From positions 1 to 5,046 of the IMG/VR virus record IMGVR_UViG_2563366924_000001: a stretch of 5,046 bases of DNA; one strand, given 5' to 3'. Positions 1-5,046 of this stretch are shown in pieces. Position numbers and translations under genes: made by a program. The DNA is from a virus (Duplodnaviria > Heunggongvirae > Uroviricota > Caudoviricetes). Under the pieces are notes generated by a model that saw only the letters and a list, made by a program, of their open reading frames with translations, was not told the DNA's origin and searched no databases. Every line of letters begins with the position of its first letter. Positions within the stretch are counted from its first letter, which is position 1.

Positions 1-312
1 GATAAGTTGCTGTGTCCGTTGCTTCAACATCGCATTCTCCGCCGCCAGCGCCGAAAACTTCTCGTGTGCCAACTTAACAGCTGCATCAGCCTGCTTAATT
101 GACTCAGTCGCTTTCTGGTGGTCTTCGGCCAGCCCTGCTAAATCAGCCTCCAGTTCGGCTAGGCGTTCATTTAATGCATCTCGTTCATCCAGTAGAGCCA
201 GCACAACCTGAGGTGTGACTTTCATACGAAATGCCAGCAATTTTTGAGGTGTTGCTACTGTTTCAATTGCTACTGCTGCCTCACGCAGTACCTGATAGTC
301 AATCTTGCTCAC
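1..312 (-). CDS. Partial CDS (N-terminal 104 codons, continues beyond the left edge); coiled-coil, possibly ead/Ea22-like
   Basis: Hand translation of the reverse complement of 1..312 gives an open frame with no stop: (V/M)[103 protein letters not shown]... The GTG start overlaps the upstream stop (GTGA). The DYQ.LREAA and VLALLDE segments recall Ea22-like prophage proteins (memory only). Confidence 0.5.
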   Translation of the reverse strand, partial: MSKIDYQVLREAAVAIETVATPQKLLAFRMKVTPQVVLALLDERDALNERLAELEADLAGLAEDHQKATESIKQADAAVKLAHEKFSALAAENAMLKQRTQQLI

Positions 313-983
313 TGGTTGCCTCCTTTGCGAATCTGTTCCGCCCATTCTTCAAGGGATTTCTCCGCATATTCACCAGATAGGCCATCAATCGGATGCGCTT
401 CATTAGCCAACTCTTCTTTCGCTGACAAAATCATGCGTGTAACGTCGAAAACTTCACGCAAAGACTTATTGATAAATCCGTGATTGAACGCAGCAGCAAG
501 ACGGCTGGCGGTATAGTTAATCCCCTCGTTGCGTGCTTCCGCACGTACTTCAGCCAGGAAAGCGTCGGTAGCTGGGGTTTGGACTTTTTCGTATTGGTAT
601 TCCGTATCGCCAAGGTCGTTAATTATGTTTCTCACCAGGTTGGACTCCACAGCCTTCAGCCCCGCATTCTCAGCAGCCAGCGTATTGCGTTCATGAGCAA
701 GTTTTTCTGTTTCTTCTTGCGCCAGTTTGTTGACCTGTTCAGCTACTTCCATGAGTTCGTTAATCACATTTATCTTTGCAGCCAGCGCCGAGCACTTGGC
801 TTCAAGGTTGTCAATCGTGATTCCTGCAGAACGACACTCCCGCAACGCCGTTTCTAGTTTTGATTCAAGTTCACCGAACTTACGGACAAGATATTCAGCG
901 TTTGTTTCGTTAACTTTTAAATCTCGCGGGATGCATTTACCTTTCAGAAATCCATCCATCTCAATTAGTGTCATTTGTTTCAT
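309..983 (-). CDS. Hypothetical coiled-coil protein, about 224 aa (phage b-region / Ea-type accessory protein)
   Basis: Long ORF with heptad-like A/E/L/K-rich composition in the central 150 residues. Start placed at the ATG at 983 (ATGA coupling with the upstream ORF); the track's start at 1001 is a GTG. Stop TGA 311..309 overlaps the GTG start of the next ORF (GTGA). Confidence 0.65.
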
Positions 984-1144
984 TTCTTCCCACTCCGCCA
1001 CATCGCATTCAGATATTTGTTGTCATTAACAGAACCGAAACTCTTTCTCTTAAGCAATTCCTCTCTCGATGGCATTGGCTTTACGCGTTGGCGAATAATC
1101 ATTTCTGCCGGAAGAATGCCGGGATTGTATGCAAGTCCTCTCAT
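980..1144 (-). CDS. Hypothetical small protein, 54 aa
   Basis: Found by hand (below track cut-off). ATG at 1144 preceded by SD AAGAGGA with a 7-nt spacer. Stop TGA (982..980) overlaps the ATG at 983 of the next gene (ATGA). Translation: [54 protein letters not shown]. Confidence 0.5.
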
Positions 1145-1160
1145 GGTAAATTCCTCTTTG

Positions 1161-1475
1161 TTAATTTATTCGTATGCCTGCTCTTTCTTCATCGAGTTTT
1201 TTTAGCTTGTATCGCATAGCTCTTACTGAATAAATTGAGCGGCAGGTTGCAATTGCTATTTCTTCTGCGGAGAACTTACCGAAAAGTGATACTTCGGCTC
1301 TTGTCCATCGTCTTCCACGAAGTCGGCTAACAATGTCAGCTCCAATCCTTGTTGCTTTCGCCATTACTGCTTTTTCAGTCCTTTCCAGTTTTTCAGCGAT
1401 AACTTCAACTGGCATTGTCGCCGCTACTTCGCGCAAGAAATCGACTTCCCATTTCTCCCATGGAGTCTTTTTCAT
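1161..1475 (-). CDS. Hypothetical 104-aa protein with two helix-turn-helix-like segments; possible DNA-binding protein
   Basis: ATG at 1475, 11 nt after the upstream stop, with a weak SD. Two internally similar segments, each a Trp followed by an acidic helix and an I-A-x-x-L/C-x-R-x-x-x-V-x-x-R type HTH-like pattern ([15 protein letters not shown] and [19 protein letters not shown]). Confidence 0.6.
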
Positions 1476-1486
1476 AGGCGATACCG

Positions 1487-1969
1487 TTATTTGATAAGAA
1501 GTGAAGGTTTCCCAACTTTGAGTTGAGCGCCGGGGATATTTATTCCTGCTTTTAGTTGGTGTTTGATTGCCAGTTTGTCGGCTTTAATTGTCGTTTCAAA
1601 CTCAACGTATTCAGGAGGAAGGGCGCTTGAGTCGATTATTTCTACAATTTCTGACGGTTTGCGGATTGTTACCTGGTGAATACCTGCTCGAATATTTTTC
1701 TTGCCAACCATTTCAAGCGATGACGCTATATATGATTTGATGCTGTCAATCTTATTTTGGATTACTGCGGCTCGCTCATTCAGTGACTTTGCCTCTTCCT
1801 TGAGGCGTTCAGCATAACCAGATTCATTTTTAATGACGGAAAGAAGTTGCTCTATTTTATCGGTAAATTCTCCTTCCATGCCTTCTATTGTGTCAGCAAT
1901 CATCTCTGGCTCTAAATCTGAATCCATCAGCTTTGCGTATTCATTGGCTATTTCATACAGTTTGCTCAC
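1487..1969 (-). CDS. Gp157-like / Gam-like recombination-associated protein, about 160 aa
   Basis: ORF immediately downstream of recT, overlapping it by 17 nt. Start re-placed to the GTG at 1969, which has SD GGAGG and a 6-nt spacer; the track's TTG at 1975 sits directly against the SD. Size, coiled-coil N-terminal half and position next to RecT fit Siphovirus Gp157-type proteins (Pfam PF05565); the family call is from memory only. Confidence 0.7.
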   Translation of the reverse strand: MSKLYEIANEYAKLMDSDLEPEMIADTIEGMEGEFTDKIEQLLSVIKNESGYAERLKEEAKSLNERAAVIQNKIDSIKSYIASSLEMVGKKNIRAGIHQVTIRKPSEIVEIIDSSALPPEYVEFETTIKADKLAIKHQLKAGINIPGAQLKVGKPSLLIK

Positions 1970-2864
1970 TGGCAACCTCCAGTTTCGCTTTGCATTCTGT
2001 GTAAATGGCTTGTACGTTCTGCTGCAATTTCATTCCAGATGTCAGGCGATATGCTTCTGCAAAATATCGCTTCAAATCATCCATGTTTTCTGCCTGAGCC
2101 ATTTCATCACAAAGAAGTTGTGCTTTTTCCGTTATTTCCTGCTGGCGTTTCCTTTCATCTTCGCGGATATCTTCCTCTGATTTGTGCGGCATAACTGGTT
2201 CAGTCCACACACCTTCTTCTTCGTTTAGTACGTGAATAGCACTATCAAGACGTGATGCCTTAGGCCAATACTTGCTTGCACGCTTTACGACCGTCTTTCG
2301 CGCCATCTCATTCCAGTGATTTACCCATGGTCCTTTATCGCTGAATGCCGCCTTGCTTGTTTTCCTTACAGCCTCAATTTCAGCCAGACTCATCTCTTCC
2401 GTTAGATAATCACCTGCTGGCGTCTTAACTGTGCAGTAAACACCAACTATATCGCCACGATCACCGAAGGCGTTGTATTTATGGGTTGGTGCTTTATCAA
2501 GTCCGTTTGACTCATAAGTATCGTTAGCATGAACAAGCTTTGCCTGACCCCATGAGATAACACCAGACTCCATTGCAATATGGAGCAATCCCATATAGCT
2601 GATATCAAGGCAAACCATGCCGTCGCGAGGAACCAGATAAGCCAGTTTGCTGGCCGGGTTTAAGGTGATGCCGATCGCCGCAACATTGATGATAGCGTTC
2701 TGTGCGCTGGTTGGATTTGCCAGTGCTGTTTTAGCCAGGTAATCGTTTTTCTGGAAATACTGAATTGCAAACTGGCTTTCCTTAGCCCATGTCACCGTCT
2801 GTTCAGTCAATGCTCCGCAGAATAACTGCTCCTGCTGTTTAACGAATTCAACGATATTGCTCAT
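1953..2864 (-). CDS. recT: RecT-family single-strand annealing protein (recombinase), 303 aa
   Basis: Contains the RecT-type motif KGPWVNHWNEMARKTVVKRASKYWP (compare Rac RecT NGPWVTHWEEMAKKTAIRRLFKYLP, from memory). SD GGAGA 6 nt before the ATG. Acidic C-terminal extension. Sits in the recombination module of the pL operon. Confidence 0.85.
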   Translation of the reverse strand: MSNIVEFVKQQEQLFCGALTEQTVTWAKESQFAIQYFQKNDYLAKTALANPTSAQNAIINVAAIGITLNPASKLAYLVPRDGMVCLDISYMGLLHIAMESGVISWGQAKLVHANDTYESNGLDKAPTHKYNAFGDRGDIVGVYCTVKTPAGDYLTEEMSLAEIEAVRKTSKAAFSDKGPWVNHWNEMARKTVVKRASKYWPKASRLDSAIHVLNEEEGVWTEPVMPHKSEEDIREDERKRQQEITEKAQLLCDEMAQAENMDDLKRYFAEAYRLTSGMKLQQNVQAIYTECKAKLEVASEQTV

Positions 2865-3172
2865 GCTGCTTCTCCAAAAATGTGTCTGCGTTTAAATATT
2901 GCGAAGGCATATTCAGCCTTAACTCTTTCGGTTATTGCATCCCAGAACCATTCAGCGGCTTTTTCCTGATAGTTACAGTCATCATCTTCCAGCCAGTCGA
3001 TAGCGTCCTTAGTGTGTTCATCTGGTTTATATGAGCGAAGCATTTCGCTTATTGGGTCGCAACGTTTGCAGAGGCGATCAACTTCACTGTTGATTCGTTC
3101 GTAATCTTCATCAGTAAAACTTGCGATAATTTGCGATATTTCACGCTTATCATTCAGAGTCAGAATCATCAT
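2861..3172 (-). CDS. Hypothetical 103-aa acidic protein, translationally coupled to recT; possible host-nuclease inhibitor by position (inference)
   Basis: ATGATG start with SD AGGAGA. Its TGA stop overlaps the recT ATG (ATGA). Occupies the position held by gam (lambda) or abc (P22) directly upstream of the annealing-protein gene. No family recognised. Confidence 0.7.
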   Translation of the reverse strand: MMILTLNDKREISQIIASFTDEDYERINSEVDRLCKRCDPISEMLRSYKPDEHTKDAIDWLEDDDCNYQEKAAEWFWDAITERVKAEYAFAIFKRRHIFGEAA

Positions 3173-3257
3173 CTTTCTCCTGTTCTTTGTGCTGATTGAG
3201 CATTTTGTTCATCTGACGAATGAATTCTTCGTCTGACCATGTATCCGCAATACTCAT
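3144..3257 (-). CDS. Hypothetical small acidic protein, 37 aa
   Basis: Found by hand. ATG at 3257 overlaps the stop of the upstream 54-aa ORF (ATGA). Translation: MSIADTWSDEEFIRQMNKMLNQHKEQEKDDDSDSE. Overlaps the start of the next gene by 29 nt in another frame. Short and low-complexity, so uncertain. Confidence 0.35.
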
Positions 3258-3418
3258 TGCTTAACGACCTTAATCAGTTGAGTTACCTCAATGATGTCCT
3301 CGCATAAATCCGAGTACTGAAATGGGCCGCAGTTGTGAGAGTTAGTGCGTCTGGCGAAAGCCATTCTTCTAAGCTCTTTCAGGGCTTCTTCCAGTTCCTC
3401 GTAAGTTGGTTTTTTCAT
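3254..3418 (-). CDS. Hypothetical small protein, 54 aa (occupies the position of kil in lambda)
   Basis: Below the ORF-track length cut-off and found by hand. ATG at 3418 overlaps the cIII-like stop as ATGA, and its own stop overlaps the next ATG as ATGA. Translation: MKKPTYEELEEALKELRRMAFARRTNSHNCGPFQYSDLCEDIIEVTQLIKVVKQ. Confidence 0.5.
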   Translation of the reverse strand: MKKPTYEELEEALKELRRMAFARRTNSHNCGPFQYSDLCEDIIEVTQLIKVVKQ

Positions 3419-3585
3419 GGCTGTACCTTTTGATTCAGAAACTCAACAAGACGATCCAGCAAGCTCTTAACGCGAGGTTGTTTAAAGTCTGCTCCGGTTA
3501 AAATATTTTTTCGTGAATGCTGTACCGATAAAATCGGGTTGAAAGGGCGAACCGATGCCGCCCCTGCAATAGCGAACTGTTGCAT
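3415..3585 (-). CDS. cIII: cIII-like small regulatory protein (FtsH/HflB protease inhibitor family), 56 aa
   Basis: ATG at 3585 preceded by SD AGGAG with a 6-nt spacer. N-terminus MQQFAIAG resembles lambda cIII MQYAIAG, and ...SLLDRLVEFLNQ resembles the cIII central helix (recalled, not searched). Position after tL and before the recombination genes matches lambda. The 91-aa track ORF is this gene with a spurious TTG-initiated extension that runs through the terminator. Confidence 0.55.
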   Translation of the reverse strand: MQQFAIAGAASVRPFNPILSVQHSRKNILTGADFKQPRVKSLLDRLVEFLNQKVQP

Positions 3586-3650
3586 AGGATGCTCCTTCTG
3601 TTTGATTGCATAACGAAAACGCCTCGAGTGAAGCGTTATTGGTATGCATA

Positions 3651-3675
3651 TAAAAAAGCCCTCACATCGGAGGGC
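3651..3675 (-). terminator. Rho-independent terminator on the minus strand (tL-like), between the accessory cassette and the cIII-like gene
   Basis: Minus-strand RNA: GCCCUC-CGAUGU-GAGGGC followed by UUUUUUA. That is a 6-bp GC-rich stem (plus 3658-3663 / 3670-3675), a 6-nt loop and a 6-U tail (complement of plus 3652-3657). Confidence 0.6.
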
Positions 3676-3737
3676 AAAGAAGATTTCCAATAATCAGAAC
3701 AAGTCGGCTCCTGTTTAGTTACGAGCGACATTGCTCC

Positions 3738-3765
3738 GTGTATTCACTCGTTGGAATGAATACAC
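3738..3765 (-). other. Perfect 9-bp inverted repeat (GTGTATTCA / TGAATACAC) with 10-nt spacer; candidate RNA hairpin or protein-binding site
   Basis: Read directly: plus 3738-3746 GTGTATTCA, spacer ctcgttggaa, 3757-3765 TGAATACAC. Sits 15 nt downstream of the 156-aa gene stop. No U-tract follows on either strand. Confidence 0.4.
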
Positions 3766-3779
3766 AGTGCTTATTCGTA

Positions 3780-4250
3780 CTAATAAAATACCCAATTTTC
3801 TGTTTCTTGGTTGTGTCCAAAGTTATATTCAATATCTGGTGTTGATGTATCAATATTCTTCATCCCATCAACAAGAGTTGATACAACAGCCAAATCTTGT
3901 TTGATTCTCATTAAATGGTACTTCTTCCGGCGCAATAAACTTTCAATGGCAAGTTTCTTCGTTGGGAATGCAAAAGATCTTTCTGCATTTTTTGCTACTT
4001 TCTTAATTGCATATCTATTTCTCCTTTGTTTCCATTCCTGTAACCACTGATTTGGTGCTGGTTTAAAATTAACAATCCAATGCGCAGGAACCAACCATGC
4101 ATAATGCTCTGTCTGATGAAAAGCTATATATTGAAGTGCGAATATTTTTATCCCATCTTCTTCAACTGTCGCCTGGAATCTCCAGAAAACAGGCATTCCA
4201 TCATGTTCAGTTTCTGATTCAGGAAAAGGTACGCTCCATGATTTTGTCAT
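3780..4250 (-). CDS. Hypothetical 156-aa protein, Trp-rich N-terminal half and strongly basic central segment; function unknown (accessory/moron gene)
   Basis: Longest ORF in this segment, co-oriented with the operon. SD GAGGTGAGAT before the ATG at 4250. Seven Trp residues, and a K/R-rich stretch (WKQRRNRYAIKKVAKNAERSFAFPTKKLAIESLLRRKKYHLMRIKQ). Hand counts on sampled 60-nt lines give about 28-40% GC here versus 45-48% in flanking phage genes. I recognise no family. Confidence 0.7.
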   Translation of the reverse strand: MTKSWSVPFPESETEHDGMPVFWRFQATVEEDGIKIFALQYIAFHQTEHYAWLVPAHWIVNFKPAPNQWLQEWKQRRNRYAIKKVAKNAERSFAFPTKKLAIESLLRRKKYHLMRIKQDLAVVSTLVDGMKNIDTSTPDIEYNFGHNQETENWVFY

Positions 4251-4330
4251 ATCTCACCTCAAATAATTCAGTGCAGTGTTTATTCTGTTGTTTATGCCAA
4301 AAGAAGGCCGACTATGCGGCATAATTATTT

Positions 4331-4519
4331 TTAACTATCATCAATACATGGCACTTTATTCCAGTCGATATCGTTTTTATTGTCGTCCCACATGTCTTTG
4401 TTTTTGTATTTCTCGCTACATCCTAGGCAAATGTTGTATGGCCTACCGATAAGGTTTAACGAAATACGTTGCATTTCATTTGATTCAAACATGTATCCAC
4501 AGAACTGACATTTATGCAT
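4331..4519 (-). CDS. Small zinc-ribbon protein, 62 aa, acidic C-terminal tail; function unknown (accessory/moron gene)
   Basis: ORF with CxxC (C4,C7) and CxxC (C31,C34) separated by 23 residues. SD GAGG about 8 nt upstream of the ATG. Lies in a low-GC segment immediately downstream of N. Confidence 0.6.
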   Translation of the reverse strand: MHKCQFCGYMFESNEMQRISLNLIGRPYNICLGCSEKYKNKDMWDDNKNDIDWNKVPCIDDS

Positions 4520-4578
4520 ATCTCACCCCTCATACAGTAGCTTACTGCCTAATTTCATTTTCTGGCGACCAACACAAG

Positions 4579-4962
4579 TCACCTCGCCGTCAGTTGTTTT
4601 GATTTCCGGTAGCCTGCCGCGTAAATGGCTACGTTTGGAAGACATACACCAGTTTCTGGTTGCTTATGTCCAAACTCATTCGCGTACACAATGGCCGCTC
4701 GCTCCAGATTGCGTCTGTATTCTTTCTGTTGCCAGATCACGTCCTGTGCCATGAACTTAATTGGCTTAGCGTCTTCTATGCGCTCAGGCGTTTCGTGAGT
4801 ACCTTTAGCCTGAATCTGCGCTCTGCTTAGAGTAGGGCGGTGTAATACTTCTGAACTTATTGCTTCTTCGCGGGCCAGTACGCCGTTAGCTAATGCCTTT
4901 GCCTTTAAACGCTCACGACGACGAGAACGTGAATTGCCTTTGAACTGAGTTCTGCGTGTCAT
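4579..4962 (-). CDS. N: N-type transcription antitermination protein (P22 gene 24 / lambda N family), 127 aa
   Basis: N-terminal arginine-rich motif (SRSRRRERLKAKALA) of the kind that binds boxB RNA in N proteins. C-terminus ...LPNVAIYAAGYRKSKQLTAR closely resembles my recollection of the P22 gp24 C-terminus. Strong SD (AGGAGG, 5-nt spacer) before the ATG at 4962. It is the first gene of a leftward operon, followed by a terminator and a cIII-like gene. Confidence 0.8.
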   Translation of the reverse strand: MTRRTQFKGNSRSRRRERLKAKALANGVLAREEAISSEVLHRPTLSRAQIQAKGTHETPERIEDAKPIKFMAQDVIWQQKEYRRNLERAAIVYANEFGHKQPETGVCLPNVAIYAAGYRKSKQLTAR

Positions 4963-4995
4963 ATAGACCTCCTGATGAACTTTGGTGGTGTGGTG

Positions 4996-5015
4996 GCTGG
5001 TAGTCTAGCTCCAGC
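4996..5015 (-). promoter_or_regulatory. Candidate hairpin in the N leader (possible nutL-related structure)
   Basis: GCTGG / CCAGC 5-bp stem with a 10-nt loop, 30-50 nt upstream of the N start. The loop is longer than a canonical boxB and no boxA-like CGCTCTT(T)A was found in the 84 nt available, so this is weak. Confidence 0.2.
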
Positions 5016-5046
5016 TTGTTGAGTCTCATTCGGAGGGGTATAACCG

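Follow-up and report, generated by a model that had tools for sequence, protein, structure and literature searches.

Why should two adjacent and unrelated phage genes begin with almost the same ribosome-binding site? The question is raised by a stretch of viral DNA of 5,046 nucleotides (nt) (Caudoviricetes; IMG/VR record IMGVR_UViG_2563366924_000001, positions 1 to 5,046), which was analysed at its full length and is referred to here as the window. The genes of the window belong to a lambdoid phage or prophage, whose early-left (pL) operon is transcribed along the minus strand in the order N, orf62, a homolog of HK97 gp45, a terminator resembling tL2a, cIII, kil, further small genes and RecT. 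The translation-initiation regions of orf62 and of the gp45 homolog are nearly identical. An earlier reading of the sequence alone had proposed for this pair either coordinated control through a shared repressor or small RNA (sRNA), or a footprint of modular cassette assembly. The latter is strongly supported by the comparative analysis, in which each gene is found as an independent cassette and the initiation region is fused to at least seven unrelated families of open reading frames (ORFs). The two regions are very probably homologous copies of a single N-distal junction, left by the stacking of two cassettes that in other phages each occupy the first position after N.

The two initiation regions of the window

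The strings quoted in the sequence-only reading were recovered where it had placed them, and the near-identity of the two start regions is real. An 11-nt core, GGTGAGATATG, is present exactly twice in the window, both times on the minus strand (4258–4248 and 4527–4517, 269 nt apart), and no further copy is found there even when up to 2 mismatches are allowed. On the coding strand, the start of orf62 reads ATGAGGGGTGAGATATGCATAAAT, with its ATG at 4519–4517, while that of the gp45 homolog reads TTGAGGTGAGATATGACAAAAT, with its ATG at 4250–4248. When a 2-nt indel is allowed, the match between the copies lengthens to TGAGG(GG)TGAGATATG. Copy 1 (4517..4544, minus strand) consists of TAAGCTACTGTATGAGG followed by the core at 4527–4517, provides the Shine-Dalgarno sequence (SD), the spacer and the ATG of orf62, and represents a variant of the N-distal junction here termed v1. 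Similarly, copy 2 (4248..4266, minus strand) consists of TTATTTGA followed by the core at 4258–4248, provides the SD, spacer and ATG of the gp45 homolog, and represents a 19-nt relic of a second junction variant, v2. The TGA of copy 2 (4261–4259) is a relic N stop codon at which no ORF terminates.

As a raw repeat the pair is unremarkable. It constitutes family D7 of the repeat scan (25 nt, 76%), one of 26 comparable direct-repeat families in the 5-kb window, and 54 of 200 shuffled sequences also give at least 2 matches at up to 2 mismatches. The unusual feature is the register, both copies being positioned at −8 to +3 of adjacent genes whose proteins are unrelated by BLASTP. Identical octamers at −8 to −1 are displayed by 1 of the 78 gene pairs of the window, where the runner-up pairs differ at 3 of 8 positions, and by 3 of the 1770 pairs formed by 60 HK97 genes. 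Taken alone, the window is suggestive (roughly P = 0.02–0.13), and it is the comparative data that establish the homology of the copies. The three HK97 gene pairs with an identical 8-nt pre-start sequence have their starts at 8203/25191, 5219/28952 and 34365/24175, one example being GGAGGCGTTATG, found at the gp15 moron and at kil. This level of sharing lies ~100-fold above random expectation, and recycled or constrained initiation regions may therefore be common in lambdoid genomes.

Each gene occurs alone after N in related phages

In HK97 and 933W, N is followed by 58 nt carrying TTATTTGAGGTGAGATATG and then by gp45, and exactly the 269-bp interval that holds orf62 is absent. The 19 nt of copy 2, TTATTTGAGGTGAGATATG, are identical at 19/19 positions to the sequence directly after N in both phages. 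The converse arrangement is displayed by mEp213 and Louie, where orf62 (100% and 98.5% nucleotide identity, respectively) is located directly after a different, lambda-type N and gp45 is missing. In these two phages the orf62 start carries the same CTGTATGAGGGGTGAGATATG as the window, and the N stop codon is the TGA within the motif. The region of copy 1 is 100% identical in mEp213, Louie and ECONIH4, in all of which the TGA within the core terminates N. The match to mEp213 and Louie extends over more than 60 nt upstream of copy 1, and between 4582 and ~4284 the window and mEp213 do not differ. ECONIH4 is the only other genome with both genes; its two initiation regions are intact and its N allele differs from that of the window. 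HK225 encodes an orf62 homolog of the same length (68% amino-acid identity) that is not located after N and is preceded by an unrelated initiation region, AAGTGGAGAGTACGTATG. The mosaic junctions coincide with the same short elements, as both the orf62 indel relative to HK97 and 933W and the gp45 indel relative to Louie, Sf6 and lambda end at the initiation region or at GCACTG.

The slot after N carries at least seven unrelated gene families

A search with an exact 22-mer taken from the conserved N-3' sequence retrieved at least 119 IMG/VR stretches, which together with other fetched loci gave 124 loci covering 1.15 Mb. The counts below refer to the matches listed, a sample biased towards many near-identical Shiga toxin (Stx) phages. 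Among these matches, the conserved 3' end of N continues as ...TTATTTGAGGTGA(G/T)ATATG, also written ...GGCAGCAAACCACTTATTTGAGGTGA(G/T)ATATG, or as the variant ...TAAGCTACTGTATGAGGGGTGAGATATG. At the ATG, the junction is joined to members of at least seven ORF families that share no pairwise BLASTP similarity, namely MEEEFEEF (28 amino acids, aa), MTKSWSVP, which is gp45 (156 aa), MEFHESAI (83–91 aa), MEALVVER (107 aa), MHKCQFCG, which is orf62 (62 aa), MEEQANKI (121–149 aa) and MERKFEIW (62 aa). GAA is also the second codon in 5 of the 7 families, which places the fusion point between +3 and +6. At the level of sequence, the comparison demonstrates that many unrelated accessory ORFs have been fused at the ATG or within 6 nt of it, the junction forming a slot-specific, reusable expression socket.

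The motif GGTGA[GT]ATATG is present in at least 116 sense-strand copies and in 0 antisense copies across the 124 loci, and all but 3 of the sense copies form the start of the first or second gene after N. Two exact copies are found in at least 14 of the 124 loci, while the complete HK97 genome contains the motif once, at gp45. This distribution ties the initiation region to the post-N slot rather than to either gene. N allele, G/T spacer variant and cassette family are found in all combinations, which fits frequent exchange around the junction. The sequence-only reading had held that occurrence at many unrelated gene starts would reduce the motif to a common strong ribosome-binding site. Many unrelated genes do use it, but all at one genomic position, and the motif is therefore slot-specific rather than a generic strong ribosome-binding site, a possibility that is ruled out by the single HK97 copy and the lack of antisense copies.

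When genome contigs were scanned with the 22-nt v2 unit, the only 5 matches belonged to Escherichia albertii, E. coli and two metagenome-assembled genomes, L135 (Segatella copri) and L136 (Cloacimonetes). With so few genome-contig matches, the exact unit looks essentially restricted to Escherichia, and our guess is that the junction in the two metagenome-assembled genomes represents mis-binned Escherichia phage DNA. The IMG/VR locus L102 is a complex mosaic that combines a lambda-type N end with a fragment resembling the HK97-type N 3' end. It carries a second GGCAGCAAGCCACTTATTTGAGGTGAGATATG copy before gp45, 991 nt downstream, which illustrates another duplication route of the portable unit.

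The junction derives from the 3' end of N

The junction forms part of N, which explains its conservation, and comprises the last codons and the stop of N and the intercistronic region. Its layout, ...AAA CCA CTT ATT TGA GGTGAGAT ATG, corresponds to the KPLI C-terminus of lambda-type N, the stop codon, the SD, a 6-nt spacer and the start of the next gene. Upstream of it lies a conserved 38-nt block, GTGACTTGTGTTGGTCGCCAGAAAATGAAATTAGGCAG (4545..4582, minus strand), which encodes the C-terminus of lambda-type N (VTCVGRQKMKLG..). This N-3' block is identical in the window, HK97, 933W, mEp213 and Louie although the upstream N genes differ, and it is likely to constitute the 5' homology arm for cassette exchange. 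Among the matches listed, a lambda-like N reads through the block in ~70 of 112 analysable loci and ends in ...VTCVGRQKMKLGSKPLI, that is, ...QKMKLGSKPLI. Those alleles stop at the TGA of ATT-TGA-GGTGA, which precedes the following ATG by 11 nt, while in variant v1 the N stop lies 6 nt before the next ATG, as the TGA inside GG-TGA-GAT-ATG. N of lambda itself ends in ...TCSGRQKIKGKSIPLI. The same unit is also found away from N, in front of lambda orf28 (CCACTATTTAAGGTGATATATGGAAGAAGAA, start region CCACTATTTAAGGTGATATATG), and Sf6 contains three family members of the initiation region in one operon.

The N allele of the window already stops at the TGA at 4581–4579, which leaves the N-3' block untranslated as a relic, visible as an out-of-frame ORF of 40 aa (4645..4523, minus strand) that ends in ...KLLYEG before its stop. 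The C-terminus of lambda-type N (VTCVGRQKMKLGSKLLYEG and stop) survives out of frame, as a relic, in the 59 nt between the N stop and the start of orf62, which are identical to the sequence of phages in which they are coding, and the junction between the two N allele types falls exactly at the HK97-type stop codon (GG-TGA-CTTG). The relic may be kept by recombination with lambda-type alleles, or it may have a role of its own, either as a hairpin, GGUGACUUGUGUUGGUCGCC, or as a frameshifted N extension.

Second-slot copies and the shared 3' boundary

The arrangement of the window, with gp45 as the second gene after N, is found in at least 9 loci among the matches listed, behind 4 different first genes. 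In this position gp45 always follows ...GCC(G)CATAGTCGGCCTTTATTTTTGGCATAAACAA.AGAATAAACAC.GCACTG-AATTATTTGA-GGTGAGATATG, and the junction between the boundary sequence (bsq) and AATTATTTGA, bsq...GCACTG-AATTATTTGA, is also present in many complete E. coli genomes. The 19 nt of copy 2 include the relic TGA that terminates nothing, which favours descent and disfavours convergence.

Across the records compared, the cassettes are also seen to share a 3' boundary, in which a small hairpin, a T-run and GGCATAAACAACAGA...CACTG lead into bsq4 and the tL2a terminator. The small hairpins at the cassette 3' ends have stems of 4–5 bp. In the window the 3' boundary of the upstream cassette (4269..4330, minus strand) displays the hairpin GCCG-CATAGT-CGGC (4320–4307) and a T-rich run, followed by GGCATAAACAACAGAATAAACACTGCACTG. 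The same boundary is found after the stop codons of the unrelated cassettes MEFH, MERK, MEAL, MEEQ and orf62 and of lambda ral, and its sequence matches more than 200 phage records. The gp45 cassette measures 504 bp (4268–3765) and is set between two copies of GCACTG, one upstream (4269..4274, minus strand) and one downstream (3765..3770, minus strand), which form a 6-bp direct repeat flanking it. Louie, Sf6 and lambda are continuous at this point and run, after their last cassette, from ...AACACTGCACTG directly into TGTATTCATTCC...terminator, that is, across GCACTG-TGTATTC. The insertion point of gp45 corresponds to the upstream edge of the element annotated as 'bsq4; boundary sequence' in the Sf6 GenBank record. 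The bsq4 homolog of the window (3652..3769, minus strand), delimited by alignment with Sf6, Louie and HK97 and also present in lambda after ral, comprises a 9-bp hairpin and the tL2a-like intrinsic terminator, for which the terminator scan gave a stem at 3675–3658 and a T-run. It is likely to constitute the 3' homology arm of the array.

The perfect 9-bp hairpin, GTGTATTCA-N9-TGAATACAC (3741–3768, minus strand), marks the start of the bsq4 homolog and is kept in lambda, Sf6, HK97 and Louie. Just downstream of the tL2a-like terminator, before cIII, lies another hairpin that resembles a terminator (3618–3637, minus strand). Other cassettes that follow the boundary GGCATAAACAACAGA, in mEp213 (~1193–1210, minus strand; locus L003) and in further loci, display related yet distinct initiation regions, with AGAGGTGAATATG fronting MKEFKGTP (92 aa) and AGAGGCTAACATG fronting MEFKGTEGKWE (98 aa). 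These examples point to a broader family of junctions in the N–cIII interval that combine a linker with an initiation region.

Translation initiation at the two copies

Both copies are strong SDs by computation, located at a good spacing and offering at least 6 contiguous pairs to 16S rRNA. The duplex with the anti-SD reaches −13.2 kcal/mol for copy 1 (GGGGUGA, including a wobble pair) and −11.5 kcal/mol for copy 2 (GAGGUGA, 7 pairs). The remaining genes of the window mostly lie between −4.0 and −8.6 kcal/mol, with N and two genes bearing GGAGG-type SDs at −10.5 to −11.6 kcal/mol. In GAGG-TGAGAT-ATG the start codon is 6 nt from the GAGG core, within the range of ~5–9 nt adopted for good spacing. 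The N stop precedes the orf62 start by 59 nt (62 nt with the stop codon), and orf62 is separated from gp45 by 80 nt. Since N stops 59 nt before orf62, coupling to N termination does not apply in the window, while it is plausible in phages with a lambda-type N.

The sequence-only reading had suggested RNA folding of both 5' regions, and this, with the HK97 equivalent included, revealed no significant or common structure: z-scores of −1.4, −0.56 and −0.52 were obtained, and the folds differ. A search of Rfam gave no match over the whole window at E up to 1, and a complementary (antisense) copy of the motif was found 0 times in the 1.15 Mb of related DNA. The spacer is variable in relatives, where the G/T polymorphism, GGTGAGCCATG and GGTGAATATG are accompanied by GCC, a 1-nt deletion, TCT and ATT. 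The properties looked for in an operator or sRNA target were a gene set independent of position, conservation beyond the SD and start, and a structure or a complement; none of them was found.

Proposed history and alternative explanations

The stacking that very probably produced the two copies can be described in two steps. In the first, which would be old and widespread, the gp45 cassette together with the last 19 nt of the N-distal junction would have become linked to an upstream cassette at its 3' boundary, at or near a GCACTG/CACT microhomology. In the second, the gene in the first slot would have been replaced by orf62 and junction v1 from a donor resembling mEp213 or Louie, through crossovers in the N-3' block and in bsq, and an HK97-type N allele would have taken the place of the former one at the GTGACTTG block. 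The conserved flanks would allow homologous recombination to swap cassettes, probably by means of the phage's own annealing proteins of the RecT, Erf or Red-beta type. The window encodes RecT, and phage Rad52-like recombinases are able to recombine short, diverged homologies (PMC3945230). Each copy would then simply give an AT-rich, promoter-less gene efficient and independent initiation on the N-antiterminated pL transcript.

Several points weigh against this reconstruction. The predicted join of an HK97-like sequence to bsq at CACT leaves 4 bases (GAAT) extra in the window. The order of events, and the choice between homologous exchange and illegitimate joins followed by selection, are reconstructed from extant sequences. 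The G/T polymorphism across families could reflect recurrent mutation instead of recombination, and the survey counts do not represent independent events, because many near-identical Stx phages are in the sample. The strength of translation is a computed value, and a regulatory role may exist on top of shared ancestry.

If the shared GGTGAGAUAUG were instead a translational operator, it would bind a common trans-acting repressor, similar to RegA, or an sRNA that co-regulates both genes. Repressors of translation that recognise the start regions of more than one gene are known in phages, T4 RegA being an example, and an exact identity of 11 nt over the SD and start of two adjacent genes is in line with such a site. 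Coordinated control of this kind, as proposed in the sequence-only reading, is nevertheless very unlikely. The motif keeps to the post-N slot and the one behind it, in front of whatever gene follows N, out of at least seven unrelated ones; its spacer is free to vary; no significant or shared fold, Rfam family or complement accompanies it; and the identity of copy 2 reaches into the relic stop-codon context TTATTTGA, which has no initiation function. Independent evolution of the same near-optimal SD and spacer in both genes draws on the 7-nt match of GAGGTGA to the 16S anti-SD, on the HK97 gene pairs with identical pre-start octamers (3/1770) and on the unremarkable nature of the raw repeat in the window. 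Such convergence is yet harder to credit, and the flanking homology has already effectively refuted it as far as the sequences can tell. The 19/19 match of copy 2 to the post-N junction of HK97 and 933W includes bases outside the SD and the relic TGA, the agreement of copy 1 with mEp213 and Louie reaches more than 60 nt upstream, the motif is present once in HK97 and never in antisense in the 1.15 Mb, and the orf62 homolog located off the slot has a different region.

The least credible explanation takes the arrangement of the window as ancestral and the direct repeats as a deletion substrate, HK97-like phages having lost orf62 through recombination between the 11-bp copies. The repeats do lie 269 bp apart, and exactly that interval is missing from HK97 and 933W. 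However, the single HK97 copy has the v2 context CCACTTATTTGA, the commonest directly after N among the matches listed, whereas a crossover within the 11-mer would leave the v1 context CTGTATGAGG. In addition, orf62 is rare (~6 of 5426 complete E. coli genomes), while N-gp45 and the succession of another cassette, bsq and gp45 are common. The stacking of two first-after-N cassettes can also be carried further, in an extension that we put forward tentatively and consider unlikely. The socket, made of the C-terminal codons, stop and SD of N on one side and of the hairpin, T-run and bsq4 on the other, would be a selected, integron-like unit into which RecT, Erf and Red-beta plug, stack and swap promoter-less accessory cassettes, perhaps for defence or counter-defence. 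The cassettes would gain immediate strong translation, coupled to N in lambda-type phages, and the coding constraint on N would keep the 5' arm.

Relation to known systems

The boundary or linker model of lambdoid mosaicism goes back to Susskind and Botstein (1978) and to Clark et al. (2001), who worked on HK620, both as summarised in PMC3233612. The region described here is an instance of this known phenomenon and an ordinary footprint of phage mosaicism. As in other boundary sequences, phages with non-homologous adjacent genes have in common a short conserved sequence at a gene boundary, which falls at mosaic junctions and is found more than once within an operon, with 2 copies in the window and 3 family members in Sf6. 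The homology of 3652–3769 to Sf6 bsq4, with the gp45 cassette inserted exactly at the upstream edge of bsq4, belongs to the same pattern. In contrast, the element itself is a translation-initiation region together with the last codons and stop of N, and it bears no bsq annotation in Sf6. None of the annotations examined describes a boundary that consists of the N stop, the SD and the start region and is joined at its ATG to seven or more unrelated genes, and the literature matches are secondary citations.

The orf28-ral segment of lambda displays the same organisation, since orf28 starts with the same initiation region (TTTAAGGTGATATATGGAAGAAGAA) and ral is followed by the same hairpin, T-run and GGCATAAATAACAGAATAAACACTGCACTG, which continues as TGTATTC...tL2a. 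Lambda differs in having a sieB-containing segment between the N stop and the initiation-region relic, and orf28-ral where the window has orf62 and gp45. The cassettes also resemble the morons of HK97 and HK022 (Juhala et al. 2000), being AT-rich accessory genes of unknown function that lie between conserved genes, are present or absent in close relatives and end in a hairpin and T-run. Unlike morons, the cassettes of the window have no detected promoter of their own and depend instead on pL read-through and a borrowed initiation region. In phages with a lambda-type N the junction is similar to those of termination-reinitiation, with the N stop overlapping the SD 6–14 nt before the next ATG. 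In the window, however, no upstream ORF ends within ~15 nt of either start, the distances being 59 nt and 80 nt. The likeness to integron arrays is an analogy only. Both have a fixed expression site next to a conserved gene and interchangeable promoter-less cassettes with conserved ends that can be stacked, whereas exchange here presumably proceeds by general or short-homology recombination. Nothing suggestive of an integron integrase or of attC sites was seen in passing, no search having been aimed at them, and the ORFs of the interval are N, orf62, gp45, cIII, kil and RecT.

The puzzling local repeat is thereby explained without new regulation. The locus offers a clean natural example for the debate on whether mosaicism arises by homologous exchange at conserved linkers or by random illegitimate joins filtered by selection. 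The linker of 19–60 nt is at once a working ribosome-binding site and, in part, the coding end of N, and at least seven unrelated genes, including lambda orf28, are joined to it at the start codon. Small, present in lambda and easily manipulated, the locus makes the Red or RecT dependence of cassette exchange directly testable. The N–cIII interval also provides a defined slot for finding accessory genes such as orf62.

Gene content of the locus

N (4579..4962, minus strand) encodes an antiterminator of 127 aa of the HK97/933W/H-19B allele type, which ends in ...GYRKSKQLTAR, matches the Pfam family N_peptide (E=2e-15) and phrog_271, and shows ~97% nucleotide identity to N of HK97 and 933W. The orf62 gene (4331..4519, minus strand) encodes 62 aa with a CxxC...CxxC pattern resembling a zinc ribbon and matches phrog_19863 (E=6e-47). 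The gp45 homolog (3780..4250, minus strand), corresponding to HK97 gp45 and 933W L0079, encodes 156 aa and matches phrog_1636 (E=3e-112). Searches of Pfam, NCBIfam, PADLOC and PDB sequences returned nothing significant for orf62 or gp45, and the PHROGs that they match are of unknown function. Sub-threshold matches to zinc-finger families and to Cas1 were judged to be noise, the PADLOC match of gp45 to Cas1_II having E = 0.018 and 12.4 bits. gp45 is conserved at 99% amino-acid identity or more in 74 phage records, and almost all tblastn matches are at least 99% identical.

The GC content of the orf62 and gp45 cassettes is 36–38%, as against ~49% for N and 46–50% for their neighbours, and a consensus scan, the only promoter search made, found no sigma-70-like promoter on the minus strand of 3600–5046. 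Of the ~6 E. coli genomes with orf62, one, ECONIH4, also has gp45. In the RefSeq genomes of E. coli that carry it, ECONIH4 included, orf62 lacks an annotation by the Prokaryotic Genome Annotation Pipeline (PGAP). It is probably a real small gene missed by RefSeq annotation, because an ORF of the same length exists in HK225 at 68% amino-acid identity and orf62 has a PHROG of its own.

A second pair of similar initiation regions, family D10 of the repeat scan, is located elsewhere in the window (305–323 and 1962–1980, with minus-strand starts at 312 and 1969). The pair reads GGAGG(C/T)(A/T)(A/G)CCAGTGAGCAA and uses GTG starts, each overlapping the end of the upstream gene, and it fronts an Ea22-like ORF (MSKIDY..) and an ORF of the Gp157 family (MSKLYE..).

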